Shown here piece after piece: positions 7,302-50,770 of a stretch of 64,000 bases of DNA (position 1 is the stretch's first letter; the number at the start of each line of letters is the position of its first letter). The position numbers and the translations under genes are program-made. The notes beneath the pieces are model-generated. The model was given only the letters and a program-made list of their open reading frames with translations. It searched no databases and was not told where the DNA came from. Source of the DNA: a virus (lineage: Duplodnaviria; Caudoviricetes); IMG/VR virus record IMGVR_UViG_3300020577_010873, positions 1 to 64,000 of that record; one strand, given 5' to 3'.

Positions 7302-7305
7302 TCCC

Positions 7306-22536: not shown

Positions 22537-22542
22537 GGCTGG

Positions 22543-24027: not shown

Positions 24028-25793
24028 TCGACGGCGTTGGTGCTTCGGGCCACCCCGGCTTCCATGCGCGAGAACTGGACGGGACCACCCACCAGCGGTT
24101 CGATCCGCAGGTCGAACCACACGAACCGGCCCTCCAGCTTGAAGTTCCACCGGGCGGGCTTGGTCGACGGGGTGACGTTCGGCACCACCGGAGGCCCCTG
24201 GAGGGTGCGGGTGCTCAGTTGGATCAGCTTGTACGACACGTCGCCCAGGGCCAGCGGGTCGACCGGGGTGCCGGACAGGCCGACGTACAGCGTGAGGGTG
24301 GCCGGCGTGTCGGTCGATCGGGCCAGGAAGTCCACGAGCAACTGGGAAACGGTCTTAGCCATCGACAGCCCGAAGTTGGTGGGCGCCGTGACCAGCCGGC
24401 AGCCGTAGGCGTCCGTCACCCAGCCGTCGGCGGTGCGGCGCTCCATGCCGTAGAAGTCGGCGTCGAAGATCTTCACCGCGTTGTCCGACGCCGTGACAGC
24501 CACGACCACACCATCCCCGGCGCACGAGACCTCGCACGGGTGGTTGAACAGATCGCACGGACCGGCGGTGCGCTCGGCCGCGGGCAGGATTCGGGCGTCG
24601 TCCCTGGGACCGAGCGGGAAGTTCGCGTCGATTCCAGCCGAGTCGCACAGCCCATTTCGGGTCAGCCACATTGCGAAGTCGTCGCTCCGGTCGATGTGGC
24701 CAGAGATGATGGCGTTGAATCCCGCGGTCTTGATCGCCGTCGACTGCTCCCGGGTGTTGATCACGTACGTCTGGCCAAGTTCGGCGGAGGAGAACAGGAG
24801 TTCATGCCGAGTCGGGTCGTACTCCGCGGCGGAGATGCGACACGAGCCGCCTCCCAGGAACTCCTCGGGCAACCCCTTGTTCACCCACTCCACCCACTCC
24901 GGGGCCGACGAGTAGGGCGACAGCGCGTAGATGCCGTCGACCGCCATGAAGAACACGATCTCCCGATTGCAGGCGAATGCCGTGGGACTGACCAAACAGG
25001 CGTCGCGCTTCGAGTGGTAGTAGAGTTGCTGGAACGAGAACGAACCATCGTCGCCCACTCCGAGACGCCACGCCCCATGGGTGGTGAGGATGAGGAACAG
25101 CGTCCCGCACGCGACGGCGCCCAGCACTTCCTCGCCCGTGTTGAGGTCGCGGAACCCCGCGATGCTGTCGTCCCCGACCGAGAAGTCGACGGAGTCGGGA
25201 TTGCCCCACAGCACCCGGTTTCCCACCCGGTGCCCGTCCATCACCACGTTGGCCACGAACGGGCAGCCCTGGTAGGACCAGCAGACGGACGCGCCGGTTA
25301 CACCGATGGCCGTAAGCGTCTCGATCTCCGAGAACTGACCGATGCCCACCCGCTGCCACCGCACGTCCACGCCGTTGCCCGCCACCACCGCCGCGCTGGT
25401 GCTGCCGAAGCTCCACCGCCCGCCGCCCGTCCGGGTCGTCCCGCCGCAGTTGGTCCACCCCCCGTCCATCCGGTTCATCCAGATGTCCGACCCGGCCCCG
25501 GCGAACAGCCGGACACCGCTGGAGTTCCGGGTGTTCGGCTGGTGCAGATGCAACGACGTGATGGGATTCGACGCCCCGTGCTGGTCGTGCAAGTCGCAGT
25601 TCGGGTGGGTCGTCCAGTGGCCAAACCGGCGCCATCCGCTCATGCGGGCCAGCCGGCCAGCCTGGGGGGCGGTGAAGTTCTGGACGTGCCGCCAGCGTCC
25701 CCACGGGACAGCGTCGACCGCCGACTGACGGTCCATCGGGGCCGTCATCGACGGCCAGACAATCGGCTTCTGCCCTGTTTGGGAGAGGATCAT
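24024..25793 (-). CDS. Tail nozzle/stabilisation protein (P22 gp10/T7 gp12-like)
   Basis: 589 aa with repeated beta-propeller-like blades (VFFMAVDGIYAL, LLFSS); genomic position. Confidence 0.7.
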   Translation of the reverse strand: MILSQTGQKPIVWPSMTAPMDRQSAVDAVPWGRWRHVQNFTAPQAGRLARMSGWRRFGHWTTHPNCDLHDQHGASNPITSLHLHQPNTRNSSGVRLFAGAGSDIWMNRMDGGWTNCGGTTRTGGGRWSFGSTSAAVVAGNGVDVRWQRVGIGQFSEIETLTAIGVTGASVCWSYQGCPFVANVVMDGHRVGNRVLWGNPDSVDFSVGDDSIAGFRDLNTGEEVLGAVACGTLFLILTTHGAWRLGVGDDGSFSFQQLYYHSKRDACLVSPTAFACNREIVFFMAVDGIYALSPYSSAPEWVEWVNKGLPEEFLGGGSCRISAAEYDPTRHELLFSSAELGQTYVINTREQSTAIKTAGFNAIISGHIDRSDDFAMWLTRNGLCDSAGIDANFPLGPRDDARILPAAERTAGPCDLFNHPCEVSCAGDGVVVAVTASDNAVKIFDADFYGMERRTADGWVTDAYGCRLVTAPTNFGLSMAKTVSQLLVDFLARSTDTPATLTLYVGLSGTPVDPLALGDVSYKLIQLSTRTLQGPPVVPNVTPSTKPARWNFKLEGRFVWFDLRIEPLVGGPVQFSRMEAGVARSTNAVE

Positions 25794-26110
25794 CGGATGG
25801 ACCGCTTTCCGATGTTGTAGAAATGGTTTGGTACCGCCTTCAGTTCAGGCCATCCATCATCCCTGAACCCCACTTCGCGTACGCGCATCTCCTCCGCGTA
25901 ATGCGCTTCTCCACCCACAAACCTTCCAACGAGGAACCGTTGCTCCACCCTGTCCCCTGGGCGCAGACAAGCGAACTCCCAATCCGAAATATTGAGAGCG
26001 ATAGGGATCTCACAAAAAATCCGGCTGGTCTGCGCCTTCGGCTTGCAGCCCACGGCAGCCAGAGCGGGAGCGCAGAGCGCGGCGATGAATCCTCGGCGGG
26101 TGGTGTTCAT
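25790..26110 (-). CDS. Putative Tat-exported lipoprotein
   Basis: TRRGFI twin-arginine motif followed by LAAVGC lipobox. Confidence 0.55.
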   Translation of the reverse strand: MNTTRRGFIAALCAPALAAVGCKPKAQTSRIFCEIPIALNISDWEFACLRPGDRVEQRFLVGRFVGGEAHYAEEMRVREVGFRDDGWPELKAVPNHFYNIGKRSIR

Positions 26111-31110: not shown

Positions 31111-31185
31111 TGGAAGCGGGTGCTGGAATCGAACCAGCGACTTGCGCCTTATGAGGGCGCCCATCTGCCACTGATGTAACCCGCC
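31111..31185 (-). tRNA. tRNA with CAU anticodon (Met or Ile2), CCA encoded
   Basis: Full cloverleaf: GGCGGGT/ACCCGCT, D-arm CATC/GATG, anticodon stem GCGCC/GGCGC with loop CTCATAA, T-arm GCTGG-TTCGATT-CCAGC, TCCA. Confidence 0.92.
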
Positions 31186-31216: not shown

Positions 31217-32251
31217 TCAACAGCGATTGAGCACGAGGTGGCCTTTGACCAGCCTCTTGTCCGACCGGAGGTACGCCTTGTAGAAGCCGCGGTCGAACAC
31301 CAGATTGTACTCCACCCGCAGCCGTCCGACGCTCCCGGCCTCCGTCACGGTGAAGCTCAGGATCGCCCCGCCCACCTCCATCCGAAGCCGCTTCTTCCGC
31401 GCGAACACCGTCTGGTCCTGAAACCCCGGCATGTTGATCACGTGGACGTTTCGGTCGACCATGTAGTTCGAGACGTGGTAGTGGCCTTGCACGAGGATCT
31501 GCGGCTTCTCACCTCCACCCAAGGACTCGACCTGCTTCTGACCCGCGTATGATCTTGCGTAGGCTGCCCCTCCGCCTGGGTGTTGCACCTTGATCCGGAC
31601 GATCCCGTGCTTTGTCGTCACGTCCACGTCAGCCTCGACGTGGCCGAGGTAGCGGAGGTCCGATCGTCCGGACTTCTCGGCCAACCCCTGGAGGTAGGCG
31701 CCGAAGTTGAACCCCTCCTTCTGCCACCACCCCTCGTGATCGTCCCCGGTGATAAAGTGCGTGGTGATGCCCTTCCTAGCCGGGTAGTTGTCCACCACGT
31801 ACAGGGCTTGGTCGTCGATGCCAGAGACGATCACCGAGGCACCGTTGATCCGCGGGATGTAGCCGTCGACGATGTTGCCCGCGTGGAGGACGGTCGTGAT
31901 TCCCTCGGCGGCGAACAGGTCGTACTGCGCGTGAAGCGCGTCCAGGCGTTGCTCTTTGCAGCACAGGTGGGTGTCGGCCACGAGTCCGATGTGGATCCAC
32001 TCGCCGTGCCGCAGGAATTTCAGCGGGAGGTATCCGAACTCCGGCTTCTCCAGCGAAAGGAACGCACCATTGGAGAACACCTTGGTCTCCTTCTCCAGCA
32101 GCCGGAGTGCCGCGGTGAGCGTCCGGGAGTCGCACCCCAGGCCAGCCTCCAGCGATGCGGGCGTGCATGGGCCCTTCGACAGCGCACGCTTGAGCAGGGG
32201 AAGGATGTCCTTGGCCGTCCGCTTCTTCGGCAGGAGGTCGTCGATTCTCAT
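31217..32251 (-). CDS. Calcineurin-like metallophosphoesterase with an N-terminal wHTH
   Basis: ADTH, HAGNIVDG, GDDH, HPGGG and GHYH motifs. Confidence 0.85.
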   Translation of the reverse strand: MRIDDLLPKKRTAKDILPLLKRALSKGPCTPASLEAGLGCDSRTLTAALRLLEKETKVFSNGAFLSLEKPEFGYLPLKFLRHGEWIHIGLVADTHLCCKEQRLDALHAQYDLFAAEGITTVLHAGNIVDGYIPRINGASVIVSGIDDQALYVVDNYPARKGITTHFITGDDHEGWWQKEGFNFGAYLQGLAEKSGRSDLRYLGHVEADVDVTTKHGIVRIKVQHPGGGAAYARSYAGQKQVESLGGGEKPQILVQGHYHVSNYMVDRNVHVINMPGFQDQTVFARKKRLRMEVGGAILSFTVTEAGSVGRLRVEYNLVFDRGFYKAYLRSDKRLVKGHLVLNRC

Positions 32252-32538
32252 TCGGACCCCTTCTTCGCGCTGGCGATTGTGGCCTTCGATCCCCACCACC
32301 ACCGGCCTCGGTGCCTGATCCGATTTCCCTCCAGCAACTTGTGCGTCCGGCCCTCGTTGAACCTCGAAACGGCGTACCCCACGCGGTTGCGAAGCTCCTC
32401 CGAGTTGACGACGTTCCCCCTTGTAACCTTCTCCGCCGCCTCGGCGATCCGCTTCACCACTTCCGGAATCACTCCGGCAAGCACGTCATCGAGTTTGAGT
32501 TCCGTAGGGTTTGGTTTGGTCTTCGATGGTTTTGACAT
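32248..32538 (-). CDS. Hypothetical basic protein
   Basis: ATGA overlap with the downstream gene. Confidence 0.55.
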   Translation of the reverse strand: MSKPSKTKPNPTELKLDDVLAGVIPEVVKRIAEAAEKVTRGNVVNSEELRNRVGYAVSRFNEGRTHKLLEGNRIRHRGRWWWGSKATIASAKKGSE

Positions 32539-32674
32539 AGTCCTCCAACCCCGGAGGTGGACCTGGGTCGTCCGAACGACCTTTCGGCCACTGCATCCGG
32601 TAATGCTGGTAACGCAGGGCTTTGAGTTCAGCCACCATCTCAGTAGCCCGCGCCAACGCCTGTTCGATCGTCAT
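32486..32674 (-). CDS. 62-aa hypothetical protein
   Basis: MTIEQALARATEM...; TGATG overlap with the upstream stop. Confidence 0.45.
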   Translation of the reverse strand: MTIEQALARATEMVAELKALRYQHYRMQWPKGRSDDPGPPPGLEDYVKTIEDQTKPYGTQTR

Positions 32675-33798
32675 CAGATGTTCCCGATGCCGATTCCGCT
32701 GCCAGAGCTTCCGCAGCCTTCGCAGGCGATCCGAAGGATCGTGCCGGCGGTGGCGTGGACGTTCCCGGTGACGGAATCGAAAAACATGCACGGGCTGGCG
32801 GAAGACTGAAGTACGTCCCAGGCCGTGCGCGGCTGGTGACACCACGAGTAGACGAGGTCGCTCTCGTTCAGCGGCGTGACCACAGCGACGTGGATGCCAG
32901 CGTTCTTCGCCGCCGTGCAGGCGGAGAGCACGCTCGGGCTGCACCGACTCTCGCCTCCCGTGCTGAAGACCACGATGGCCTTGCGCACGCCCGTTCGCCC
33001 CGTCTGGTGCATCGCGTACGCCTGCATGATCGCCTTGCCCGGGTCGTCCGAACCTCCGGGGAACGGCATGATCGAATCAGACCACCCGGCGACTCCGGCA
33101 AAGGCGATGCGGTCGGTTCCGGTGCGCGTTCCAATGCTCGGCCTCGTGGGGTTTCCCGACTGGGTCCACCCGGACAGCAGGTCGAACGCTTGGTTGTCCC
33201 GCAGGTCCATCGACAACTGGAGGGACAGGATGGCCTGTGGATACTGGTTGGCCACGGACGACCGGAGTTCGCGAAGTGCCCGGCCGCGGATGACGTTCAC
33301 TCCTCGGGCTACCGATACAATTCCAGCCACCCACTCCGATCCGTTATCCGCCACGACCACCACGTCCCACGGCTGGCTGGCGGCGCAGACGTTGTCGAAC
33401 ACCGATACCGTTGCTGTGGCCAGCAGCCCACGCCATGTTCCGGTCATTCCGGAGGTTCCAACGTCCAGACCACGCACCAGACCGCCACCCGCCGAGCTCG
33501 CCACCACGCCGTTCTCGACTTTGAACGTCCCCTGGCCGGTGACGTCCGCCACCCGCCCGTCGGAGAATGTGGCGACCAGCCGGACGTACGATGACCGTCC
33601 CTTCGCCACATCGACGAAGGGCGGCATGATGTCCAGTTGGACGATCTCCAACTGGCCGCACGTGTCTTGATGGTCGATAGCGTAGAGCGGGTTCTGGCAC
33701 GATGAGTACCAGTCTCCGCAAGAGCCGGCCGTCGGAATATGCGCGTTCCCGTGGTCGGTCAGTATGGCGTCGCCGGGTGTGGTGGGTGGGCAGATCAT
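32674..33798 (-). CDS. Ig-like (Big_2) plus vWA-like protein
   Basis: ATFSDGRVADVT...GLVRG Ig pattern; DVVVVADNGS...KAIVVFSTG...AAKNAGIHVAVV vWA pattern. Confidence 0.7.
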   Translation of the reverse strand: MICPPTTPGDAILTDHGNAHIPTAGSCGDWYSSCQNPLYAIDHQDTCGQLEIVQLDIMPPFVDVAKGRSSYVRLVATFSDGRVADVTGQGTFKVENGVVASSAGGGLVRGLDVGTSGMTGTWRGLLATATVSVFDNVCAASQPWDVVVVADNGSEWVAGIVSVARGVNVIRGRALRELRSSVANQYPQAILSLQLSMDLRDNQAFDLLSGWTQSGNPTRPSIGTRTGTDRIAFAGVAGWSDSIMPFPGGSDDPGKAIMQAYAMHQTGRTGVRKAIVVFSTGGESRCSPSVLSACTAAKNAGIHVAVVTPLNESDLVYSWCHQPRTAWDVLQSSASPCMFFDSVTGNVHATAGTILRIACEGCGSSGSGIGIGNI

Positions 33799-34193
33799 CA
33801 GGATTTCCGGTTCCTCGCCAGTTCGTCGGTGAGGTTGTTGATGGCGTTGATCGAGTTTTTCAGGTCTTCCCGCGCCCCGTCGTGCAGCAACTTCAGTTGC
33901 GCCGCGTGGTCCTCGTCCTGCTTCCGCTGGTCGTCCTTGGACTGGATGGCGTACTTGATGAACTCCCGGGCCAGCCACCCGAGCGTGCCAATGGACGTCA
34001 GGGTGACGACCAGCAGAAGGTACTCGATGCTCTTTCCCTGGAGCGTTTCCGCCGCCTTCTCAGCAGCCGGAATCGGTACTTGCGCCAGAAGATGAGCCGC
34101 CTCAGCCCTCGTCCCTAGAAGCACGAGGGCCGAGATGGCGATAGCCAAGGCCGCGTTGAACATCACACGTAGTCTCAGTGGGGCGGTTTTCAT
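33798..34193 (-). CDS. Membrane protein, holin or i-spanin candidate
   Basis: Two hydrophobic segments and a C-terminal coiled coil with a basic tail. Confidence 0.55.
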   Translation of the reverse strand: MKTAPLRLRVMFNAALAIAISALVLLGTRAEAAHLLAQVPIPAAEKAAETLQGKSIEYLLLVVTLTSIGTLGWLAREFIKYAIQSKDDQRKQDEDHAAQLKLLHDGAREDLKNSINAINNLTDELARNRKS

Positions 34194-34549
34194 TTTGCGA
34201 TAACGCTAACTTTTAGTCTCGTCATCGGAGCACTCGTCACGACTCCCGACGGGACAGCGAAATGGGCCGGGTCCGAGATCGGCCCGTAGAGTCCCAGGAA
34301 GTTTCGGGGCGTGACGCGTGCGACGAGAGTGGCTCCGACGACCAGTTGGTTCGACGGCAGTTTGATTTCCGAAACGCCATTGGTGACGGCCGGTAGCGTG
34401 ATCCAGTTCGTTGCGGCCAGCGTGGGTTTCCACTCCACGCGGTACTCCGTCACCTGTTCTTCCGCTGGCGACTTGTCCCACGTGACGAACACATCGAGCG
34501 CAGATGCGCTGTATGCAAGAGCGACGATTGATGCAGCGAAAATCTTCAT
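34190..34549 (-). CDS. Signal-peptide FN3-like protein
   Basis: MKIFAASIVALAYSASA|LDVFVTWD...EYRVEW. Confidence 0.65.
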   Translation of the reverse strand: MKIFAASIVALAYSASALDVFVTWDKSPAEEQVTEYRVEWKPTLAATNWITLPAVTNGVSEIKLPSNQLVVGATLVARVTPRNFLGLYGPISDPAHFAVPSGVVTSAPMTRLKVSVIAK

Positions 34550-34656
34550 CGAAGTGTTATAAGTGGCTTTTTGTAGGACGACCCATCCCAGTTGCCTTTG
34601 CAACCGCATAGATAGGACGCGAGTACCAACAGAACTACTATGGCTTGCTTCTTCAC
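34546..34656 (-). CDS. 36-aa lipoprotein (absent from the ORF track)
   Basis: MKKQAIVVLLVLASYLCG|CKGNWDGSSYKKPLITLR; GTGA and ATGA overlaps at both ends. Confidence 0.65.
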   Translation of the reverse strand: MKKQAIVVLLVLASYLCGCKGNWDGSSYKKPLITLR

Positions 34657-35201
34657 GGGTGTAGTATTTTATCGGACTGCTCCCTTGTCAGTACACCAAT
34701 GGACACCGCCAACTCCATAAACGCCACTGTGTCTGAATTGTTATTTTTAACAGTAACGGCAAGCTGCGACTGTCGTATAGCCTTTCGAACGAGTGCTCGA
34801 ATCTCGTTCGGAAGTTCGACATTAACCGATGCGGCGTCCATTCGGTCCCATGCACCCGGAGCATTTGTCTCGACGTTGTTGTAGAACTCCAAGGCCGACC
34901 ACTCATGTTCGGATTCAAGCCTATCTCTCTCTTTGTTCCACGCTTCTTTTGCGGATGATAGAGCGACCAAAATATTCGTGTGCTCCTCAATCGTTAACAC
35001 CTTCCAGTCTCCCTGCTCTGGCAACGCATTCGTATCCGGAAGCTTCGATGTTGCGGACCTGATTGTCAGGTATGGCCAATTAGTCGGGCATCCCTTCTTA
35101 AACTCAGTAGTATTTGCGGAACCATGTGTGAGCACAAAAACGAATTGCGCGTTTGCGCTCAGACAGAACACCAAAGCCACAATTACCATGATAGTTTTCA
35201 T
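34653..35201 (-). CDS. Signal-peptide protein, possible tail-fibre assembly chaperone
   Basis: MKTIMVIVALVFCLSANA|Q; C-terminal LAVSIGVLTREQSDKIL resembles fibre-chaperone ends; low GC. Confidence 0.65.
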   Translation of the reverse strand: MKTIMVIVALVFCLSANAQFVFVLTHGSANTTEFKKGCPTNWPYLTIRSATSKLPDTNALPEQGDWKVLTIEEHTNILVALSSAKEAWNKERDRLESEHEWSALEFYNNVETNAPGAWDRMDAASVNVELPNEIRALVRKAIRQSQLAVTVKNNNSDTVAFMELAVSIGVLTREQSDKILHP

Positions 35202-36589
35202 CGTGCCGGGGTGTAGAATTGTTCGATGTGAACGTAGTCGATCTCCATAAGGTCCGCGTTTGCACCGACGGTGGACTCGATAACGATTCGAGTCCCAGTT
35301 CCACGCGCTGCACCGAGCGGAATTCCCGTCGTAATCGTGGCCTGCAAGGTCCCATCGACGAAGAAGTACGCGTACCCCAAAAACCCGTCGACTTGGACTT
35401 CAAGCTTTTGCCACGCGGTTGCCGACGGCCCGACGATTAGGTTGGAGGATTGGAGGGAGGAGTTCGAATATACCTTCGCCACCCAGTTACCCGAATTGAC
35501 GTTGTCCGTGTACTCGAAGTACGCGCCGTCCGTCGCGTTTCCCGCTGTGGCGTCGTAAAACCCACACCGAGCAATGTACCGATCCGTACCGTTCGACAGC
35601 ACCGGAAGCCGGGCGCGAAATTCGAATTTGCTGAAGTTGTTAGTTCCAAACACAATAGAGTCAGTAGAAGTAGCACCTAACTGCAATCGATTGTTCCCCG
35701 TAGCCGTGGTTCCAGTCGACAACCGGACAATCCCACACGCGTTCGTTTCGGACGCCACGATTGACGCACCGGAGCCAGATCCGTTGGCCGTCGTGACGAT
35801 CGGCCCCGTGGTCGGCAACGCCGCCCAATTGAGATCGTCGTAGTAGTCGTAGAATTTGTTCGGCTCGGTCAACACCGGATAAGCCACCGAGTTGGTGATG
35901 GACCACGCGATGTACTGAGTTCCGGCAATGTTGGTAACGGCCTGGCCAATGACGTAACCGCCCCCACTGGCCGGGAAGTTCGTGGCGTACCCCTCGATAT
36001 CCCCGTTGCCGTTGATCACGAACCGAAGGCCCCCCGTGGTCGCCGACGGCGCATTTGTCAGCCGGGCCGGTTGCTGCATGGTGCCGTTGACCACCAGGTT
36101 GGTGCCAAGGCCGCGCGCGTTCAGCGCTGTGATCACGGCCGCGTCCATTTTGTTGCTCGATACCGCGTTCGACTTGAGAGCGAACGTCAGGTTGGTTCCG
36201 GTGAGCGTTCCATCGATCTCCGCCGTGTCGGCTACGTTGACCGTCGCACCGTACGTCCCGTCGACGGACACCACCGTTCCTGAGTTCGTGGATGGCGGAG
36301 ACGAGCTACCACCGGCAGACACTAGCTTCCATTGTCCACCTCCGATGGCGTCGAAGATGTCGGTGTTGTTGGTCGCCCCCCATGACGCGGCGTGCGTGGC
36401 AATCCGCGCGGACGAGTCTCCTGCCGCGTTCTCTCCCAACACGATAGTCGTCTGGTTCGTCGATGGGCGGATCGACAAAAGGCCGTTGGTCCCTCGCAGG
36501 GTGTTGGCCACCGACATCGGCCGCAACGCCTGGGCCGCGACGATCAGTCCAATGAACAGGAACAGTACGATGATGATGAGGCGTTTCAT
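35198..36589 (-). CDS. Tail fibre/spike with a signal peptide and a C-terminal lectin-like (ConA-type) domain
   Basis: MKRLIIIVLFLFIGLIVAA|Q; N-terminal docking-type domain; WQKLEVQVD...YFFVDGTL beta-sandwich. Confidence 0.7.
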   Translation of the reverse strand: MKRLIIIVLFLFIGLIVAAQALRPMSVANTLRGTNGLLSIRPSTNQTTIVLGENAAGDSSARIATHAASWGATNNTDIFDAIGGGQWKLVSAGGSSSPPSTNSGTVVSVDGTYGATVNVADTAEIDGTLTGTNLTFALKSNAVSSNKMDAAVITALNARGLGTNLVVNGTMQQPARLTNAPSATTGGLRFVINGNGDIEGYATNFPASGGGYVIGQAVTNIAGTQYIAWSITNSVAYPVLTEPNKFYDYYDDLNWAALPTTGPIVTTANGSGSGASIVASETNACGIVRLSTGTTATGNNRLQLGATSTDSIVFGTNNFSKFEFRARLPVLSNGTDRYIARCGFYDATAGNATDGAYFEYTDNVNSGNWVAKVYSNSSLQSSNLIVGPSATAWQKLEVQVDGFLGYAYFFVDGTLQATITTGIPLGAARGTGTRIVIESTVGANADLMEIDYVHIEQFYTPAR

Positions 36590-36590
36590 C

Positions 36591-39500
36591 TCAGTACCTT
36601 TGGAGGAGAGCAGCACGGCAAGTGAAGTCGATGGGCTGACCCACGTTGTTCTGGAACGTCAGGTCGACCGCGTTCGACACCGTCGTATTCAGCGTGCCAG
36701 AGACGGTTGGGTTCTCGCGGGCCGGCATTAGCGGAGTTCCGGCGACGCTGTAGTTGTAGTCCAGTCGACCTCCGACCGATACCGCGGCGGATGAGCCGGC
36801 GGTCTTGACCGTCAGATACACCACGGTGTTCCACTCCCAACCTGTCGGCTGCCACGAATCCGCGTCGTGAATGGTGAAGCTCACGGTCAGTCCACCGAAT
36901 TTCGCTCGCACCACTCCGCCATCCCAGTTGGCCGGAGGAGCGGTGAACACCCCTGACGCCTCCAGCTTGTAGATCGACCCGGTGGTCATGCTGTTCGCCG
37001 GAAGAGTCTTGCTCTCGCCCACCCGCACCGCGCTGATCACAGTCGTCTCGGCCGACGTTCCTGTGTCGACCGTCACGTCCGAGGCGGAACCGAAGACCAC
37101 TGGACTGCTGGCCCCGATGTAGAGCGTACCGCTGTTGGTTCGAAGGATGATTCCGGGGTCGGCCAGGATGTTGGTGAAGGCGAAGGTCGTGGATGGCGTG
37201 ACCGGAACCCACGCCCCGTTCTGGCGACCATAGGTGATGCCGTTCGTCAGTGCGTCGGTCACGACCCACGAGCCGTTGATCCGCATCTTCTTATCCAGAA
37301 TGTACCAGTCGACGGACGACACGTCGTTCTGTAGGCGCTTGGCCGTCATCCAGAAGAACGTGGGGGATCCGGAGTCGGATGGAACTTCGAAGTTGAAGTC
37401 GGTGTACCCGTGGTCCAGAAGGCCGCTGGCGGTTGAAATACCCCACCGCTTGGAAATAGCCGGAGCGTCGGCGGAGTAGAACCATAGGGTCGGTCGTCCC
37501 ATGTCGGCCCTGCGGTCGATCGTGACGCCGTGGAACGTGTTCCATCCCGTCATGTCGTTGTCCGTCGTGAGCCCTGCCTTGCCGTCCAAAGCAGCCTGTA
37601 GGCCGGTGGTGTCGGCGATCACGTGCGTGTGGTTGGTGACGGACGCTCCGATTTGAGTCCGGAAGTCCGCCGCGGTCATCTTGCTGATCGCGAACCCCGA
37701 CTCGTCGATCACCAAAGGCTTGAGGTTCACGCCGGGCGTCACCACAGGAAGGTCGTAGGCGAACAGGCCAGCGGTGGAGGTCAGGCCCTCGGCACTCAAA
37801 CCCTCGGTCGCGATGAGCGAATAGCTGACCGTGTCGTCCAGAACCGTCTGGAGGCCGGTGATCGCTCCAATGCCAGGGCGCGTCCAGGCGTTGTTGTACC
37901 GGACGTACCACTTACTGTCCGCCGGGGCGTCGGGGATGCCGTTGGTCGGGCTGGGTGTGCTGGGAATCGTGGTGAACGCCCCAAGGCCGTTGAGCCACGT
38001 GTTCGAGCTTCCTGCACCAGTCCCAATCCGGTTGATGTCCAAGATGCCACTGACGATGTTGCTCGCCGCGTGCGTGTGGTCTCCCGTCGCCACGTTCAGC
38101 GCCCCGGCGTAGAGCACGCCCGTCGATGTGTCGCGCTTCACCTTCTGGACGTTGTTGCTGATGGTGATGGACAGCGGTGTGTCGACGTTGAGCGCCGGAG
38201 CCTCGACTCGGAATCGGCCATCACCGATTTCCATGGTGTCCAGACCGATCGACCAAGACTTCGAGTTCCCGTTGAATGCCACGATCTTGGTGTTCAGGTT
38301 CGAGATGGTTGCAGATATAGCGTCCCCGGCGTCGAGCGAGTCGATGCGAGTGAACGCGATGGACTTCCAAGAGTTCGTCGGCTCCAGGCCGGCTTGGGTC
38401 GTCCAGTCAGGAACGACCTGGGCAGCAACGATCGAGTTCAGGTCGGCGAACGGTTGGAAGTCGAAGTACGCCTTCTCCGAACCGATGTTGCGCACGACCC
38501 GGACGTGACCAATGGGATTGCCCGTGCCAGCCGCGTACGCCCAGTTGCGCGTCATCACGATCTGCGCGTCGCTGTAGTTCATTCCGACGTTGAACTCGGC
38601 GGAGGACGATGAGTAACCGCCTCCCGAGCCAATGGTAATCCGAGCGGAACCGCGGGTGCCGAAACCGATGGGGTTCAATTCGGCCACACGATACCAATTC
38701 GTCGACTGCAACCCACTGACGGTTGACACGCGAGTACCGATGTCTGGAGCCGCCCATTTCCGTCCGTCGTAGAAGGCCGGAAGCTTGTCCAGCGAGTCCC
38801 AAATGGTCTGTCCGCGGTCGGGCGTGCTTACGATCTGGTCCGCGTTCTCCGAGTGCAGGTAGAGAGGGCGGTAGAGTTTGAACGCACCGCTAACGCCGCC
38901 CGACAGCATGTTCTCCCACACCACGCCGTCCGGCGCCGTCTTGTTCAGCAGCAGAGGGCTTTCGGTTTGGGTGACGTGGTTCGCCGCCAGGAACGTGTTC
39001 GTCGACTCGCTGAGATCAATGCCGCCGCGGAAATTGTGAATGCGGTTGGCCACCACCATGTTTCCGCTCAGGGCGCCAGGAGGGTAGTTCGTGGAGTAAC
39101 GACCGAACCGAATGCCGCGCCCGACACCGTTCGTGGTCGATCCGTCAGGCCCGGGACTGCGGATGATGTTCCCGATGATCGTCGAGTCCGACACTGGGTT
39201 CCAAAACCAGATTCCGTACTGCACTGCCTCCAGGGTGTTGTTGATGATCGACATGCCCTGACTCATGAAGCAGGAGATTCCGATCGTCCCGAAACCACTG
39301 GTGCCGGACGTGGTGCCGTTCAACCCCCAGTTGGTGGACAGCAGGAACTCGTTGCCGGAGATAAGGCAGTTCGCCGCCTCGACCGTGGTGTCGATGAAGT
39401 GGCGGATACGTCCACCGTTGAACTTGTTTCCGATCACGCGGTGGTTTCGGCCGTACAAGCTGATGCACGAATACTGCTCCATCACCCCCGACACATCCAC

Positions 39501-40556
39501 CCAGCCGGTGTTCTGCACCGACCCGTTGAAGCTGTTGGTGAAGGTGTTCCCGATGAACAGCCCACCCGAACCGCTGGCCTTGATGCACCGCTTGCCGATG
39601 TCTTCGAAGAAGCAATGGCTGACCTCGACGTTCGCGTCGTCGTAGGTCCAGAGCGAATCGGTCCACCGAATTGCATCCGAGTCCTCTCCCGGCAGGATGC
39701 GCTTGAAATTGCAGTTGTGAATGAGGATCCGCTTCGGCTTACCCGGGTATGTGAATGGTAGCCGGTTGATGTAAATGCCGTGGGCGAAACCAGTGCCGGG
39801 TGCGGGGTTCCCGATGATCCCGTCCGGCTGGGAGTAGATGTCGACGAAGTTGCAGTCCTCGATCGTCGCATGCGTGTCGCCGTGGATTGAAATGGCAATC
39901 GCCGTGATCTTGTTCGTGAACTCCTGAAGGTTGGTGAAGGTGCAGCTTTGAGCAACGAACCGCTCCACCCCATCGGCCAAGTCCACGGCGCGATGGGACG
40001 TCCGGCGCCCGTCGAACTTGATGCCCTGGATTCGCACCGAACTGCTCGCCACTTGGAGCATGTTCGTCAGCGACGCCGGGTCCTGAAGGATCGTCACTCC
40101 GTCACCGAAGATGTTCTTGGGACGGGTGACGTGGAGGTGCGTGATCAGGTTGGTCCCGCGCAACTGGAGTCCGAAGGACGGCCAGTCCAAAGCCGCCTGG
40201 ATCGCAGCCGTGTCGTCCGTCACGCCATCGCCCTTCGCCCCCCACCATGCCGCGTCCTGAACTGGAGCTCTTCGGTCAGGAAACACCCATCGCCCGCCGT
40301 CGCGGCATGGGAAGACGTTCCCGGTGTTCGTCCCATCGGTGGACGTGCGGTCCCACTCAACCAGACGGTCCTGCCCCCAATCTCCGGACGCCTCACGTCC
40401 GCCCACGGAGTACGTGATCTTCCCAGCCGTGGCGAACGCCGTGGGCTTAAGCATCAGCAACTCGCCAAGGGTGTCGACGCGCCGCTGAGGGCCCTGGGCG
40501 TAGGAGGACAAACCGGCAAGCAGCACTGTCCAGCAAAGTATTGCCCATCGGATCAT
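36591..40556 (-). CDS. Tailspike with a pectate-lyase-like beta-helix and a signal peptide
   Basis: WWGAKGDGVTDDTAAIQAALD; many IxxNxF beta-helix rungs; start fixed by ATGA overlap. Confidence 0.85.
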   Translation of the reverse strand: MIRWAILCWTVLLAGLSSYAQGPQRRVDTLGELLMLKPTAFATAGKITYSVGGREASGDWGQDRLVEWDRTSTDGTNTGNVFPCRDGGRWVFPDRRAPVQDAAWWGAKGDGVTDDTAAIQAALDWPSFGLQLRGTNLITHLHVTRPKNIFGDGVTILQDPASLTNMLQVASSSVRIQGIKFDGRRTSHRAVDLADGVERFVAQSCTFTNLQEFTNKITAIAISIHGDTHATIEDCNFVDIYSQPDGIIGNPAPGTGFAHGIYINRLPFTYPGKPKRILIHNCNFKRILPGEDSDAIRWTDSLWTYDDANVEVSHCFFEDIGKRCIKASGSGGLFIGNTFTNSFNGSVQNTGWVDVSGVMEQYSCISLYGRNHRVIGNKFNGGRIRHFIDTTVEAANCLISGNEFLLSTNWGLNGTTSGTSGFGTIGISCFMSQGMSIINNTLEAVQYGIWFWNPVSDSTIIGNIIRSPGPDGSTTNGVGRGIRFGRYSTNYPPGALSGNMVVANRIHNFRGGIDLSESTNTFLAANHVTQTESPLLLNKTAPDGVVWENMLSGGVSGAFKLYRPLYLHSENADQIVSTPDRGQTIWDSLDKLPAFYDGRKWAAPDIGTRVSTVSGLQSTNWYRVAELNPIGFGTRGSARITIGSGGGYSSSSAEFNVGMNYSDAQIVMTRNWAYAAGTGNPIGHVRVVRNIGSEKAYFDFQPFADLNSIVAAQVVPDWTTQAGLEPTNSWKSIAFTRIDSLDAGDAISATISNLNTKIVAFNGNSKSWSIGLDTMEIGDGRFRVEAPALNVDTPLSITISNNVQKVKRDTSTGVLYAGALNVATGDHTHAASNIVSGILDINRIGTGAGSSNTWLNGLGAFTTIPSTPSPTNGIPDAPADSKWYVRYNNAWTRPGIGAITGLQTVLDDTVSYSLIATEGLSAEGLTSTAGLFAYDLPVVTPGVNLKPLVIDESGFAISKMTAADFRTQIGASVTNHTHVIADTTGLQAALDGKAGLTTDNDMTGWNTFHGVTIDRRADMGRPTLWFYSADAPAISKRWGISTASGLLDHGYTDFNFEVPSDSGSPTFFWMTAKRLQNDVSSVDWYILDKKMRINGSWVVTDALTNGITYGRQNGAWVPVTPSTTFAFTNILADPGIILRTNSGTLYIGASSPVVFGSASDVTVDTGTSAETTVISAVRVGESKTLPANSMTTGSIYKLEASGVFTAPPANWDGGVVRAKFGGLTVSFTIHDADSWQPTGWEWNTVVYLTVKTAGSSAAVSVGGRLDYNYSVAGTPLMPARENPTVSGTLNTTVSNAVDLTFQNNVGQPIDFTCRAALLQRY

Positions 40557-42625
40557 ACAAAACCCTCCCGCTTGTAGTGGATGCCCGCGGCGTTCACGAC
40601 GTTGTCCACCCCGTCATGGACCGTCGAAGTGTCGTCCCGCTTGAAGATCGTCGTCTGCTTGCGCGAGTCGAAGGCCAGCACCCAGGCGCAGGAGACGCGG
40701 CTCTTGGTCAGGTCGGCGTAGGTTGGGAACCCGATGACCGCGCTTGCCTGATAGCTCTCCTCGCCCGATGGCGGAGGAGCGATCACATCCGATCCACCCT
40801 CGCGCACGAACGTGCGGTAGATCACCCGCCCAAGGACGGTCATGCGGACGTCCGTCCCGTTCGGGATCACCGCAGGGTCCGTCACGGTCGACCACTCGCT
40901 GATGATACCGTCACCCGGATCCCAGTTGGTGACGCGAGCCTTCTGCCAACTCTTGGTGCTCGCCAGCATCTCATCCCGGCTTGAGAACTCCTCGAACTGC
41001 GAGACCGTGGGCGGCGTCCCTGGAGTCGGACCGACCGGAATGCTCGGACCTAGCTCGTCCGTCTTCGTCACGGTGTCGCGGACCGTCCCGTCGGTGTCGA
41101 TGAACTTCCACACCGCGCTGGTGCTCGTGGCGTCGACCATGAGGAACCCGAAGTCTGTGATTCGAACCTCCGACCCTGCCTCGGGCGTCGCCTCAAACCC
41201 GTCCTGCGGGGAACCGCCTCCGGTCCCAACGACGAAATGCAGGCGGTTCAAGAACGTCCCGCGCTCGTAGTTGTGGCTGTGGCCGGAGAGTACGGCGTTG
41301 ACCTCCATGTTCGAGGCCCACCGCTGGGACACCACTCCAGGGGCGTACCGCTCGCCCGAGGTGTACGGCGCGTGATGCAGGCACAGGAACTTCCAGCGGG
41401 CGCAGCTTCGGGCGACGATCGACTGGAGCGCCACCCACTGCGGAGCCCCGGCGAAGTTCCCATCCGTCTCCACCACGGTTCCAGCGGTGTTGATCCCGCT
41501 GTTGGCGATCACCAGCGTTACCGGACCGAGTTCGACAGAGAAGTATCGTCCGTTCCCGGGGTTGCCCACCGCTTCGGAGACGGTGGTCAGGCCAAGGTCC
41601 AAGTCGTGATTCCCCAGGGCCACGACCAGCTTGTGGGCGTCGATGAACGTCTGGTACGGAGCCAGCGCGGACTCGACCGTCGCCGGACTGTATACCGCGT
41701 CCCCCAGGAGAACCACGTAGTCCGGGTTCTGCGCGATCACCGCAGCCGCAACCGCCTGGGCGCCGGCATTGGCCGTCCCGGTGTCTCCGACGAAGCAGAT
41801 GCGAGTGGACGTTCGAACCTCCGGGGCGTCCGCCGGAGGATTGGCCGTGAAGTTGATCTCCGCCGCCGCGGCTTCAGAATCGTCCGGAATGTCGCCGTTG
41901 ATCTGGTTCTCGCGGTCGCACGCGATGATCTGCTCAGCGTGTTCCTCTCGGAAACTCCGCTCCCGCGTCTGGAGATCGGGCGATGCGAAGTCCCGGCCGT
42001 ACTCCATGGTCAGCCAGAGTCGGATCAGCCGCTTGAACGCCGGGTCATCCGGAACGAGGTCGGTGTCGCGCCACTCCTTTTTGATGCCCCGCCACTCCAC
42101 AACCAGCTTCTCGGTCGACTGCAACCACGGACCGACGATGAGCCGTTGGGTGTGCGGGTCGATGGAGTAGACTCCGCCGCCGGCACGCCCACCCGGACTG
42201 TCGAGCGTCGCCGACGGCTGAATGAAACCCTGGTCTCCCGAAGTGATGTTGTTGTTCCGGTAGACCCATCGGGCGTTGCGCCGGAACTTCGCCATCCACC
42301 TACGGAGCGTCGGCAGCGTGACCGGCGTGTACGGGACAGCCGCGTCCCACCCGCCGGCCTCTGACCCAATGGTGTAGACCCGCAGGATCTCTCCCGCGGG
42401 CTTGGTCAGAACGCTCGCCCCGTTCTGGAACATGAGCGAGCACGATGGGTAGACGTCAATATGCCGCTGCTGGTAGCAGGGGATGTGACGCTGGAGCACG
42501 AACATGCCTTCGGCCAGACGGTCGGCCAAAAGCGTCAGCAGATTCTCAGGTGGACCCTGGGGAAATGCCGAGCCAGTGGCGTCGGTCGTCCCGATCACCG
42601 AGGCTTTGAGTTCGGCGAAGTTCAT
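40553..42625 (-). CDS. Head-tail adaptor-like protein fused to a purple-acid-phosphatase-type metallophosphoesterase and two spike-docking-like domains
   Basis: GDTG, GDAVY, GNHD, HHAPY and GHSHNY motifs from about aa 275; adaptor-like N-terminus and position. Confidence 0.75.
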   Translation of the reverse strand: MNFAELKASVIGTTDATGSAFPQGPPENLLTLLADRLAEGMFVLQRHIPCYQQRHIDVYPSCSLMFQNGASVLTKPAGEILRVYTIGSEAGGWDAAVPYTPVTLPTLRRWMAKFRRNARWVYRNNNITSGDQGFIQPSATLDSPGGRAGGGVYSIDPHTQRLIVGPWLQSTEKLVVEWRGIKKEWRDTDLVPDDPAFKRLIRLWLTMEYGRDFASPDLQTRERSFREEHAEQIIACDRENQINGDIPDDSEAAAAEINFTANPPADAPEVRTSTRICFVGDTGTANAGAQAVAAAVIAQNPDYVVLLGDAVYSPATVESALAPYQTFIDAHKLVVALGNHDLDLGLTTVSEAVGNPGNGRYFSVELGPVTLVIANSGINTAGTVVETDGNFAGAPQWVALQSIVARSCARWKFLCLHHAPYTSGERYAPGVVSQRWASNMEVNAVLSGHSHNYERGTFLNRLHFVVGTGGGSPQDGFEATPEAGSEVRITDFGFLMVDATSTSAVWKFIDTDGTVRDTVTKTDELGPSIPVGPTPGTPPTVSQFEEFSSRDEMLASTKSWQKARVTNWDPGDGIISEWSTVTDPAVIPNGTDVRMTVLGRVIYRTFVREGGSDVIAPPPSGEESYQASAVIGFPTYADLTKSRVSCAWVLAFDSRKQTTIFKRDDTSTVHDGVDNVVNAAGIHYKREGFV

Positions 42626-43069
42626 TCACGGCTGGGCGCCGGAGCGCCGACGAAGGGGAGGCGCAGCGGATTGATCCGCGGGAGTAGCCGCAGGAGCGGG
42701 TGGAGCATCAGCCGCCGCAGCAGGAGCCGCGGGTTCGGACGATTGTTGGGGCGCTGGTGTGAGCCGGGGGGCGTGCAATGTATCGGAAGCTGTGGTCGGA
42801 CCCCCCAGGGACTCCCGCGTCTTGGGAACCCACCGACCCACCCTTTTTTCGAGGTCTCCGTATTCCGCTTCACCGATGGCAGTGATCTCGCCGCCGATGT
42901 GCTCTTTGATGCAGGTCTCCAGGCAGGCGATGTGCAGCGCCTCCTCGGCCTTCGCCTCGTCCAACGCGAGGATGCCGATGGCGTCGCCGATGCGCTGCCA
43001 CTTCAGCGTCTTGCACGACTTCGAACAGTACGGACGAATGTCTGGGGTCTTGGTCTGAAAATACTTCAT
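42626..43069 (-). CDS. Hypothetical head-completion-region protein
   Basis: ORF between the capsid-associated gene and the adaptor; Pro/Ala-rich tail. Confidence 0.6.
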   Translation of the reverse strand: MKYFQTKTPDIRPYCSKSCKTLKWQRIGDAIGILALDEAKAEEALHIACLETCIKEHIGGEITAIGEAEYGDLEKRVGRWVPKTRESLGGPTTASDTLHAPRLTPAPQQSSEPAAPAAAADAPPAPAATPADQSAAPPLRRRSGAQP

Positions 43070-43097
43070 GGCTCGGGTGTTGAGGTTATGGGAAGGA

Positions 43098-43127
43098 CGC
43101 ACCTCCGGCGGTTAAACCGGAGGTGCG
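43098..43127 (-). terminator. Intrinsic terminator-like hairpin after the capsid unit
   Basis: CGCACCTCCGG/CCGGAGGTGCG 11-bp stem. Confidence 0.65.
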
Positions 43128-43141
43128 CAAGACCGATGGCC

Positions 43142-43663
43142 TTACGGGTACGAGGTGTAGGGCCAAGTCAGCGCCCAAGGCTGCTTGCCCGCCACCCGAA
43201 CCGTGAGGTTGGTGACGTAGTTCGTGGCGCTCGACGTGTACCCACCGAACAGCAGGTAGGCCGCACCACCCGTGTTGATGTTGGTTCCCCATGCCCGCGG
43301 AGATGTTCCACTGAATGTCAGAACAAGCGTGGTAAACGCCGTGGTCTCCGCCGTAACACCGTCGATCGAGCGGTAGACCGGAACGCTGAGCGTGGCAGCC
43401 GCCGGGTTGGTGTACATCAGGGCCGCGCCGATCTGGACGTACACGTCGGTGTGGCGACTGACGTCCACGAACTCGGTGTTGTTCGACACGCCGGTAACGC
43501 CGAACGATCCACTGATGACCGACGGAACGTTGGTCAGTGTGATCGGCGTGTAGGGCGTCAGGACGGTCTTCACGCCTCCGCGCACCTGGGGGATGCACAG
43601 AGCGAGCAGAGCCAGCACGCCCAGGAGCAGCCCTCCGATCTTGAAACGAGTCTTCGTATTCAT
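43142..43663 (-). CDS. Capsid-adjacent beta-rich protein with a signal peptide (decoration candidate)
   Basis: Immediately after the MCP gene; MNTKTRFKIGGLLLGVLALLALCIPQVRG. Confidence 0.6.
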   Translation of the reverse strand: MNTKTRFKIGGLLLGVLALLALCIPQVRGGVKTVLTPYTPITLTNVPSVISGSFGVTGVSNNTEFVDVSRHTDVYVQIGAALMYTNPAAATLSVPVYRSIDGVTAETTAFTTLVLTFSGTSPRAWGTNINTGGAAYLLFGGYTSSATNYVTNLTVRVAGKQPWALTWPYTSYP

Positions 43664-47405: not shown

Positions 47406-47761
47406 CGGGCCTCCTTTCGCCGATCGAGCGCATCGTCGAGTTGGGCTGCGAACTTCGCGATGGCTGCCTTGGTCGTCGGCATTTTGTTGGCAGCCAAGTG
47501 CATCTTCAACGCGACGTGGATCTTTCGGTCAGGGTAGGACCACCTAACCCGGGCCATCTGTTCTTCCGTCACATCCAGCCGCCAGAAGTCCAGGCCGCAG
47601 CAGGAGCAGAATTTATCCGCCAGCGCCACGCGCCACGCCCCCCACCCGTCGGCAATCCACTTCTGGAGCGTGCGGATGGGAATGCCGATGGCCTGGGCGA
47701 TCTGCGAGTTAGACTTCTGGCAGATCGCCCGCACCACCGCCGGATGGACTTTGGTGGGCAT
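47387..47761 (-). CDS. HTH protein, terminase small subunit candidate
   Basis: NSQIAQAIGIPIRTLQKWI; immediately upstream of terL. Confidence 0.55.
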   Translation of the reverse strand: MPTKVHPAVVRAICQKSNSQIAQAIGIPIRTLQKWIADGWGAWRVALADKFCSCCGLDFWRLDVTEEQMARVRWSYPDRKIHVALKMHLAANKMPTTKAAIAKFAAQLDDALDRRKEARCGSPH

Positions 47762-49131
47762 CAGACGAAGTGGAAGCGCCCGCTGCCTCCAGTGGGCTCG
47801 GCGTTGGATGACCCGCCCCCGAGGGGGATGCGCTCGGTCGTGGGCGGAGGAACCACCGTGACCGTCGGAGACGGCGGCTTTGGTGGGGCGGCCGGTGCAG
47901 CGGGAGAGGGAGCGGTTCCGCGGGCGGCTTGGTAGATGCGCTGAATGTTCTGCTTCCCGTGGGCCAAAGCGGTGGCCATGAATGCCGCTGGCTCGTACCG
48001 AAATGAGAAGAACTGAGAACGCTTATCCGCCGGCAGCTTCTCGTATTCGGAACGAGGAATGAACTTGCGACCGTCCAACTCCACGGACGATCCGGATGCC
48101 TGAGCCTGGGATGCCAGGGTTTCGAACACGTCGACCATCTGCAAGATTTCGGCGTCCGGCTGGAATGGCGAATTGGGAGTCAGGGACTTGGTGGCCCGCT
48201 CCGCCACGGACTTCAGTTTGACCGCCGCGGGTTGGGCCAGGGCATAGGCGAATGCGTCCTTTGCCTTCAGTTCCTCCAAGTTCGCCACGCCAAACTGGGA
48301 CACCACGTCGGTCTCGGCGATGATTCCAGCGCCCGCAGCCTCGCCTTCCAACCTGACCCCAAACTCCCGCTGCTCCCGCTCGCGGAAGATTTTGTCGACC
48401 TTGGCCTCGGCAATCCGGTTGATCTTGATCTCGGTCTCAATCTGCTGGATTTCCTCCTCGTCGATGTTCGGCTTGTGCTGCTCCAAGACCGCCACGTGCT
48501 CAGGAGCGTTCTCGTCGAAGTCCTTTCCAGGGTTGTTCTTGGTCCAGTTCTCCACGTAGTCGGTGTAGAACTTCGTGTACCGATCGTTCCCTCCAACGAT
48601 GTCCTGCCCCTTGTAGTGCGGACGTGCGCTGGCGATCTTCACCGCCTCCCGGCGAAGCTCGAACGGGTCGTCCGGATTGGGCGTGGCCGCTGGCGGAGTT
48701 GAGGGCGGCTGCGTCTCGGTGGTCTGCGGCTTGATAGCCTCGGCGATCTTCTTCGCCAACTCATCGGGATTCAGCCGGTCGAGCTTCTTCGGTTCCCGCG
48801 GAGTCTCGGGCGCCGGGGTTGCGGGTGCCGCGGGTGCCGCGGGTGCCGCTGGTGCCGGAGGCGGAGTGCCGGCGGCGGGAGGGGCATCCGGAGTCTCGGG
48901 CGGCGGGAAGACCGGGTCGGGGATGACCGGGCGAACCGGCTCGGGGCTGCGGCGGATGCCGAAGGACGCCAGGAGTTCGCTGTCGCGGTCGTACGCCGAA
49001 ACCCCTTGATAGAGGTCGGCCTTGTGGAAAACCGCGAACTCTCCGGAGTTTCCGGACGGTTGCGCGGGCGCTGGAGGCGGGGTGGGTTGAACCGGCTGAA
49101 CGGGTTGCGTGGGCTGGATCTCGTCTGCCAT
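47761..49131 (-). CDS. Capsid scaffolding protein
   Basis: Pro-rich termini, charged helical core, first gene of the late unit. Confidence 0.65.
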   Translation of the reverse strand: MADEIQPTQPVQPVQPTPPPAPAQPSGNSGEFAVFHKADLYQGVSAYDRDSELLASFGIRRSPEPVRPVIPDPVFPPPETPDAPPAAGTPPPAPAAPAAPAAPATPAPETPREPKKLDRLNPDELAKKIAEAIKPQTTETQPPSTPPAATPNPDDPFELRREAVKIASARPHYKGQDIVGGNDRYTKFYTDYVENWTKNNPGKDFDENAPEHVAVLEQHKPNIDEEEIQQIETEIKINRIAEAKVDKIFREREQREFGVRLEGEAAGAGIIAETDVVSQFGVANLEELKAKDAFAYALAQPAAVKLKSVAERATKSLTPNSPFQPDAEILQMVDVFETLASQAQASGSSVELDGRKFIPRSEYEKLPADKRSQFFSFRYEPAAFMATALAHGKQNIQRIYQAARGTAPSPAAPAAPPKPPSPTVTVVPPPTTERIPLGGGSSNAEPTGGSGRFHFV

Positions 49132-49170
49132 ACGCGCAAACCCATACACCTAACGCGCACCCCTTGTCAC

Positions 49171-50612: not shown

Positions 50613-50677
50613 AGTGATGAGTTGGCGCAGATCACGACCGGGTATCGGATCTTCCTGGGAACTACTTAAGCGCCGAC

Positions 50678-50720
50678 CCACAATGCCATTGTGGTGCTCT
50701 ACCAACTGAGCTACGACCCC
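50678..50720 (-). other. attP-like core: 5' half (nt 1-43) of tRNA-Ala(GGC)
   Basis: GGGGTCG TA GCTC AGTTGGTA GAGC A CCACA ATGGCAT TGTGG, then no T-arm, acceptor 3' strand or CCA; directly upstream of the integrase core. Confidence 0.75.
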
Positions 50721-50770
50721 ACTTGCCTCGCGGCGGTGGAAGTCAGCCATCTCGGCGAGAGCACTGTCAA
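50721..50770 (-). promoter_or_regulatory. Stable-RNA-like promoter in front of the tRNA half
   Basis: Perfect TTGACA at 50765-50770; GC-rich CCACCGCCGCG discriminator-like tract; weak -10. Confidence 0.45.

Follow-up and report, generated by a model that had tools for sequence, protein, structure and literature searches.

The minus-strand late genes of a temperate tailed phage, represented by IMG/VR record IMGVR_UViG_3300020577_010873, include a block in which a 1321-aa spike, a 463-aa fibre and two small proteins, p182 and p119, all begin with predicted Sec signal peptides. We analysed the first 64 kb (positions 1 to 64,000) of this 73,988-bp virus record, hereafter the window, to which positions refer unless they are marked as genome positions or belong to a named related locus. 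The 6.8-kb segment 33798-40556 is best explained as the host-recognition module of the phage (Table 1). Judged from sequence, genuine export of the spike, the fibre, p182 and p119 appears likely and their cleavage by signal peptidase I probable. The new observation is that each fibre with a spike-type N-terminal domain (N-domain) directly follows a signal-less module. Taken as a whole, the arrangement is best explained, tentatively, by a Sec-exported host-recognition set that would be docked onto particles at lysis.

Examination of the minus strand revealed all five N-termini quoted in a first-pass annotation, those of the spike, the fibre, p182, p119 and p173, as well as Gln at +1 in three of them (spike, fibre and p182). 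Signals were called by a hand-written rule, not by SignalP, that asks for a positive net charge at the start, a hydrophobic core free of charged residues (~8-16 residues in a typical h-region) and small side chains at -3/-1; all five proteins pass it, the cores of the fibre and p173 being long (~16 residues). By the strict form of this rule 5.3% of 901 distinct genes from related loci are signal-like, a base rate at which four adjacent signal-like genes would arise with a probability of ~1e-5, and since orthologues also retain their signals, chance is an unlikely explanation of the block.

The same annotation held that the starts of four signal genes are fixed by their neighbours, which is true of three. 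ATGA overlaps join the spike start to the stop of the gene before it and the p182 start to the fibre stop, and the spike stop is followed 1 nt later by the fibre ATG. The start of p119 is unfixed, with a 103-nt gap before the gene and an in-frame ATG upstream at 34609, and the fourth overlap in the block, again ATGA, belongs to p131 (33798-34193) and its preceding gene. Such details bear on whether the N-termini are secretion signals at all or are start-codon artefacts, membrane anchors or helices buried in the tail, a view favoured by the unfixed p119 start, by p131 being better read as a two-pass membrane protein and by the use of a hand-written rule in place of a trained predictor. We consider it very improbable, given that the starts of the spike and p182 are fixed by overlapping stops and that of the fibre by the spike stop 1 nt away, and that a signal with a conserved cut-site motif is kept across orthologues whose signal sequences are unrelated.

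A survey of related phages, which had been named as a check on the signals and for which ~90 related loci were retrieved, revealed that orthologues keep both the signal and the features of the cut site. Alignment of the first 120 residues of the spike from the window, L003, L001 and P0121 left Met1 as the sole invariant column of the signal segment (first ~20 columns), while -3/-1 were always small (S.A, A.A, A.G and A.A) and Gln +1 and Gly +2 were invariant together with 25 further columns in the rest of the alignment. Such a pattern of conservation is classic for a signal, here a predicted one, that is cleaved off a mature domain under constraint. The mature part of p119 is 99% identical to its L140 orthologue and the signals of the pair are unrelated, L139 carrying a third variant; the p182 orthologues of L139 and L140 are 37-40% identical to p182 and both have a signal. 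Homologues of p173 likewise retain a signal and a canonical cut site (L003 AKA↓GVKT, L141 AHA↓GVNT and L142 SAFA↓ATPQ). The most telling case for real signals appears to be L141, in which the fibre is split into two genes (6924-8698) encoding a 204-aa N-domain protein and a 387-aa tip-bearing protein, each with its own predicted signal.

Comparison across the family showed that signals on the block genes are restricted to the closest clade. The p374 homologue directly follows the p690 homologue in more distant relatives, which indicates that the signal-bearing block is an insertion at the position of variable tail genes.

These comparisons also bear on a dual fate, in which export late in infection would be partial and serve a side role and the virion pool would come from cytoplasmic precursor by normal assembly. 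It would retain ordinary assembly most simply, a beta-helix trimer that folds quickly could evade Sec, and the ~16-residue cores of the fibre and p173 lie between those of a signal and a membrane anchor. Selection nevertheless holds the -3/-1 cut site and Gln +1, features of no relevance to a protein that is not cut outside the cytoplasm; both halves of the split fibre have signals of their own, and small accessory proteins keep signals even where the signal sequence has been replaced. We therefore regard a dual fate as distinctly unlikely.

The spike and the fibre are built like receptor-binding proteins, as the first-pass annotation had proposed. In the spike a conserved N-domain (aa 21-106) is followed by a beta-helix that starts at aa ~104, by repeats of a fibre-like type and by a C-terminal domain (aa 1136-1318). 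Its description as a beta-helix protein is borne out by a match to tail spike PHROG 2234 (E 1.9e-9) and by a beta-helix model nearest to phage depolymerases: a model of the first 300 residues gave CBA120 TSP2, Depo32 and Fri1 gp49 as the best Foldseek matches, with template-modelling (TM) scores of only 0.3-0.4, and in it the first helix is separated by a low-confidence linker at the cut site. A homologue search with spike residues 1-130 returned mostly the WWGxxGDG beta-helix motif and a single true N-domain relative. Scans for the spike N-domain returned only two loci from viral sequences and one from metagenomes, and it is accordingly rare. The last ~180 residues of the spike, its C-terminal domain, are 39% identical to the end of a signal-less fibre of L002.

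The fibre combines an N-domain beginning QALRPMSVAN with a widespread tip domain (aa ~240-463) present in 3171 library proteins. Of the 140 top tip-domain matches that begin with Met, 120 carry no signal at the N-terminus, which in many of them is of the classic fibre type; the homologues of the fibre N-terminus all have a signal and then Gln. As the tip and C-terminal domains recur on signal-less fibres, the same working ends are evidently used with and without a signal.

Directly upstream of the spike lies the gene of p690, a signal-less protein of three parts, in which a full purple-acid-phosphatase (PAP) fold (aa 272-527) is inserted between an N-domain (aa 1-264) and a module at the C-terminal end (aa ~541-690). 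Residues 1-522, comprising the N-domain and the phosphatase fold, are conserved across the phage family, and the phosphatase assignment agrees with Pfam Metallophos (E 9e-12) and with a Z of 29 to pig PAP. A second metallophosphatase-like gene is present at 31217-32302. The modelled p690 N-domain may resemble a T7-type head-tail adaptor (the fold of gp11 and A4 gp32): VIA-align matched it to chain d (216 aa) of the cyanophage A4 portal-tail complex 9k09, most likely the adaptor as judged from its size and from PMC12002296, with a Z of 10.8 over 196 residues at a high root-mean-square deviation (rmsd) of 6.2 Å. The fibres of cyanophage A4 attach at the adaptor-nozzle junction (PMC12002296).

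Residues ~541-690 of p690 occur only where a spike-type fibre follows, and p690 homologues without the module have no such fibre downstream. The module was found directly before a spike-type fibre in four contexts: fused to p690 in the lineage of the window itself, fused to a p690 homologue in L001, as a small stand-alone open reading frame (ORF) in L136 (E 8e-16), an unrelated phage with a 410-aa capsid gene, and, in L142 (E 5e-17), at the end of a signal-less 264-aa protein of another kind, which is ATGA-coupled to the fibre. The pairing had been predicted beforehand for two loci, L141, which belongs to the lineage of the window, and L142, the sole match of the metagenome scan, and both showed it. 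L002 encodes a 105-aa signal-less ORF with a classic fibre N-terminus, ATGA-coupled to a 1221-aa signal-bearing protein, which may be a second kind of stub.

The pairing of a predicted cytoplasmic module with the N-domain of a predicted exported fibre suggests docking after the compartments merge, and is the best argument for it here. The module might also act as a cytoplasmic helper that holds the nascent fibre for export or guides it to Sec, since it invariably lies immediately upstream and in translational coupling, an arrangement common among dedicated chaperones, and is a small stand-alone ORF in L136. In two lineages, however, the module forms part of a large and conserved protein of the virion type whose N-domain is adaptor-like, and in L142 it is fused to another protein. 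Because of these fusions a structural stub fits the module better than a chaperone, and the role of export helper seems improbable.

In the textbook view the assembly of tailed phages is wholly cytoplasmic. The course that we propose would run through two compartments. The spike, the fibre, p182 and p119 would be exported late to the periplasm of a diderm host, probably a member of the Verrucomicrobiota, and p173 too would carry a genuine Sec signal cut by signal peptidase I. Cleavage after the small -3/-1 residues would leave an N-terminal Gln on the spike and the fibre, which may cyclise, and the exported proteins would fold in the periplasm. Meanwhile the DNA-filled particle would be built in the cytoplasm, bearing the signal-less docking module as the C-terminal end of the adaptor-like p690. 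The putative holin p131 and lysis would then merge the compartments, upon which the spike N-domain would bind the p690 module and the fibre would bind in turn, perhaps to the spike. The first-pass annotation had spikes stored in the periplasm and docking only after breach of the inner membrane. Such storage might, as it suggested, also protect precursors in the cytoplasm from depolymerases. Its premise holds in that the signals look real and sit on proteins of the receptor-binding type, and the docking step is strengthened by the partner module and the holin-like gene; it is plausible on this sequence evidence, short of probable. In its general form, a cytoplasmic head and tail core with stubs, a Sec-exported periplasmic receptor apparatus snapped on at lysis, and a stub plus N-domain moving as a cassette between unrelated phages, the idea is possible and somewhat doubtful.

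Several points weigh against docking. The membrane separates the exported proteins from cytoplasmic particles, and these proteins might never join the particle. They would instead serve the infected cell as enzymes and adhesins, free or bound to its envelope, whose stripping or masking of receptors would keep progeny from being trapped and block superinfection, or they would be freed at lysis as a soluble depolymerase; the particle would then adsorb through other, signal-less proteins. Candidates for such receptor-binding proteins exist, namely p374, which is conserved, signal-less and Cys-rich, and a beta-helix-looking 381-aa protein, and L002 has two signal-less fibres alongside its signal-bearing protein. 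Pantoea WceF, an exported bacterial tailspike-like enzyme, is among the fold matches, and signal-bearing proteins of Porphyromonas phages have been read as envelope modifiers (PMC10367356). We found no paper in which a tailed phage is reported to have signals on its tail spikes or fibres, no tailed phage is known to assemble by this route, and the stated norm is a tailspike without a signal, that of P22 included (bioRxiv 10.64898/2026.09.13.751334, Fig. S23 legend). The structural side adds the low confidence of the spike N-domain model, too weak for a fold match of that domain, the low confidence of the C-terminal end of the p690 model, the high rmsd of the adaptor match to a chain identified from its size, and the possibility that the partner module could be an export helper. 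No enrichment of paired cysteines, taken as a mark of periplasmic folding, was seen in the signal-bearing proteins, and a tblastn search of 50,697 phage records with the capsid-like and fibre proteins as queries gave nothing, the host and all relatives being uncultured.

Against the reading in which the proteins never join the particle, the N-domain is conserved and the distal parts are swapped, a hallmark of proteins anchored to the particle. A signal-less module accompanies the spike N-domain in every case and here forms part of an adaptor-like virion protein, ordinary fibres have the same tip domain, ATGA overlaps couple the genes to structural genes of the late operon, and that operon contains no clear spike or fibre lacking a signal. 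On these grounds we think it rather unlikely that the exported set stays off the particle, and docking at lysis is kept as the preferred explanation. Action on the surface of the lysogen, the other role that had been suggested, is unlikely, since the genes are translationally coupled within the late operon and internal promoters and terminators in the block are at or below chance (searched with the sigma-70 consensus only). The own promoter and terminator typical of a lysogenic-conversion moron were thus not found for the signal-bearing genes.

As to the 381-aa signal-less protein (genome 68263-69408, L135:4263-5408), its sequence is beta-helix-like without a Pfam match, and it could be an alternative spike or depolymerase.

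Comparison with known systems shows what is familiar in the set and what is not. Podovirus tailspikes and fibres (P22 gp9, CBA120 TSP2, Klebsiella Depo32, T7 gp17 and cyanophage A4 gp24) have an N-terminal particle-binding domain. Like these spikes, the spike of the window has a depolymerase-type beta-helix and a conserved N-domain with swapped distal parts, and like these fibres, the fibre of the window shares an ordinary tip domain, with the spike gene sitting behind an adaptor-like gene. Unlike them, the window proteins have a cleavable-looking Sec signal before the N-domain, and the partner module is separate and signal-less. Spikes can bind complete particles, as the docking step requires: the tailing of P22 with its tailspike, Dec and Hoc/Soc are cases of in-vitro addition to finished particles. 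In those systems both partners are cytoplasmic, joining normally before lysis. Exported phage lysis proteins (signal-bearing and signal-anchor-release (SAR) endolysins and spanins) are likewise late, use host Sec and act in the periplasm, but they are lysis factors and not virion parts, whereas the window set is built like receptor-binding proteins. WceF of Pantoea stewartii carries a twin-arginine translocation (Tat) signal. This glycan-modifying enzyme (PDB 6tgf) is an exported tailspike-like beta-helix as well, and differs in being a chromosomal gene product of an exopolysaccharide cluster and not of a phage late operon. The prophage proteins of Porphyromonas gingivalis (Matrishin et al. 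2023, PMC10367356) also have predicted signal peptidase I signals with Gln at +1; they differ in that their function is unknown, that they belong to a Bacteroidota host and that no tail part was named among them.

The Gln at +1 had been taken as a Bacteroidota pattern, a reading that gave way when the attachment site was examined. The 45-nt attP core (50677-50721) is identical to the 5' part of a tRNA-Ala(GGC) in a Verrucomicrobiae metagenome-assembled genome (MAG) with a GC content of 62.4%, and 300 other Verrucomicrobiota genomes contained no identical match, the next best being 93%. The host is probably a member of the Verrucomicrobiota, not of the Bacteroidota, as far as this match tells. 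In 747 kb of the MAG (G001) Gln occupies +1 in 8 of 56 signals (14%) predicted by a rough heuristic, as against 48-77% reported for Bacteroidetes under the Q-rule (Bochtler et al. 2018, PMC5837995, a paper in which Verrucomicrobia were not examined). Gln is second only to Ala after the predicted cut sites of G001. Host assignment by prophage failed, since no relatives were found in 401 Verrucomicrobiota genomes and the only six loci in species-representative genomes come without exception from MAGs, which belong to mixed phyla.

Both fibre N-domain families have an invariant Gln at +1, which the small accessory proteins do not, and together with the ~14% seen in the MAG this makes it look selected in the fibre proteins and not a host-wide rule. 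The conservation suggests that an N-terminal Gln may be selected on exported fibre proteins outside the Bacteroidota, where it perhaps serves to block the N-terminus. The plant-type glutaminyl cyclase PF05096 was not found in the candidate-host MAG, which is incomplete, and the animal type was not searched.

Table 1. Features of the late block and other proteins with signal-like N-termini in the window; the arrow marks the predicted cut.
Feature	Position	Strand	Predicted signal	Cut site	Remarks
p173	43142-43663	-	signal-like, aa 1-29	...QVRG↓GV	beta-rich body
p158	42626-43102	-	no signal		conserved small late protein
p690	40553-42625	-	no signal		three parts
Spike, 1321 aa	36591-40556	-	aa 1-20 (nt 40497-40556)	...SSYA↓QG	
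Fibre, 463 aa	35198-36589	-	aa 1-19	...IVAA↓QA	low-GC island
p182	34653-35201	-	aa 1-18	...SANA↓QF	position expected of a fibre helper gene
p119	34190-34549	-	aa 1-17	...SASA↓LD	one FN3-like domain
p131	33798-34193	-			two membrane segments, charged coiled C-tail; no family match
p374	32674-33798	-	no signal		11 Cys; conserved in family
p106	25790-26110	-	twin-arginine-like and lipobox-like motifs at N-terminus		between two virion genes
p108	9506-9832	+	signal-like N-terminus	FAA↓QV or AFA↓AQ	small protein

The small neighbours of the spike and the fibre gave few family assignments, Pfam and PHROG searches with the small signal-bearing proteins returning no match. The label chaperone-like given to p182 is not supported, as neither database matched it and its position behind the fibre gene is all that fits. 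An Atlas search with p173 and p182 returned only viral clusters of unknown function, and an XkdW lead for p182 from this search is at chance level. The FN3 label of p119 finds no family match either; a paralogue of p119 is encoded at genome 66109-66492. By its sequence p131 has the features of a class II holin (two membrane segments, a charged C-tail and small size), its homologue in L140 begins at Met11, and it looks like a holin more than a secreted protein. Upstream of p690, the gene of p173 is an accessory insert in a few lineages and not the conserved head-associated gene that its place after the capsid-like gene had implied; a p158 homologue usually follows the capsid-like gene, and the true start of p158 is probably the internal Met of MKYFQTK.

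Six more signal-like proteins are encoded elsewhere in the genome. For p106 no family match was found. p108 has an AEGG motif and two Cys and may be an exported wall-active enzyme, a role unsupported by any family match. Beyond the window, in L135, lie four more signal- or lipobox-bearing proteins (genome 66109-66492, 66734-67345, 70264-71196 and 71287-71790), a cluster that includes the p119 paralogue and a lipoprotein-like protein that also adjoins the signal-bearing fibre in L136. The fibre signal MKRLIII... reappears there on an unrelated Cys-rich 203-aa protein (genome 66734-67345).

The genome, with a GC content of ~62% overall, encodes an integrase, RecT, an exonuclease VIII-like gene product, a DnaB-like helicase, a large terminase and a 3651-aa giant protein. 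An N4-like phage, considered because of the giant protein, was rejected in view of the integrase, RecT and DnaB and of the lack of a polymerase match in that protein. The minus-strand late genes are closely packed in the order 462-aa protein, terminase, 610-aa capsid-like protein, p173, p158, p690, spike, fibre, p182, p119, p131 and p374. A low-GC island (54.6% at 34-36 kb; 34000-36000) spans the fibre, p182 and p119, and its low GC together with a GC content at third codon positions (GC3) of only 0.51 in p182 suggests, from composition, that it may have been acquired recently.

The 610-aa protein had been labelled major capsid protein; its position fits, and no Pfam, PHROG or PDB sequence match was found for it, so that it is presumed to be the capsid protein from gene position only. 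It has 163 homologues, mostly on 70-80 kb contigs. No solved structure matched the capsid-like protein, the spike or the fibre in sequence. In the distant relatives L020, L023-L027, L032, L034, L036, L058 and L063 the capsid-like ORF is extended in frame at the N-terminus by ~30-45 residues with one or two hydrophobic segments, e.g. MSPKKLFGLTALLWCAAFLLAPMWALSALA. The extension could serve as a leader that targets the membrane, could be a small gene of its own that lacks a stop, or could result from a wrongly assigned start.

Other features of the late region were noted. No cysteine occurs in the 3651-aa giant protein, p392, p238 or the 462-aa protein (10401-21356, 21358-23259 and 47761-49149), whereas p589 has 13 and p374 has 11. 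A tRNA-Met (CAT) gene lies at 31111-31185, inside the late region, with the second metallophosphatase gene on one side and a plus-strand pair including a DUF6734/glycosyltransferase-like gene on the other.

If the proposed course is true, the host-recognition parts of some phages would reach maturity in the periplasm and be fitted to the particle at lysis. Annotation and expression of fibres and depolymerases would change, in that the signal must be removed for recombinant work, and the poor behaviour of such proteins in cytoplasmic expression would be explained. Host defence and phage engineering would gain a new target, and the pairing of a signal-less stub with a signal-bearing fibre offers a concrete, testable protein-protein interaction.

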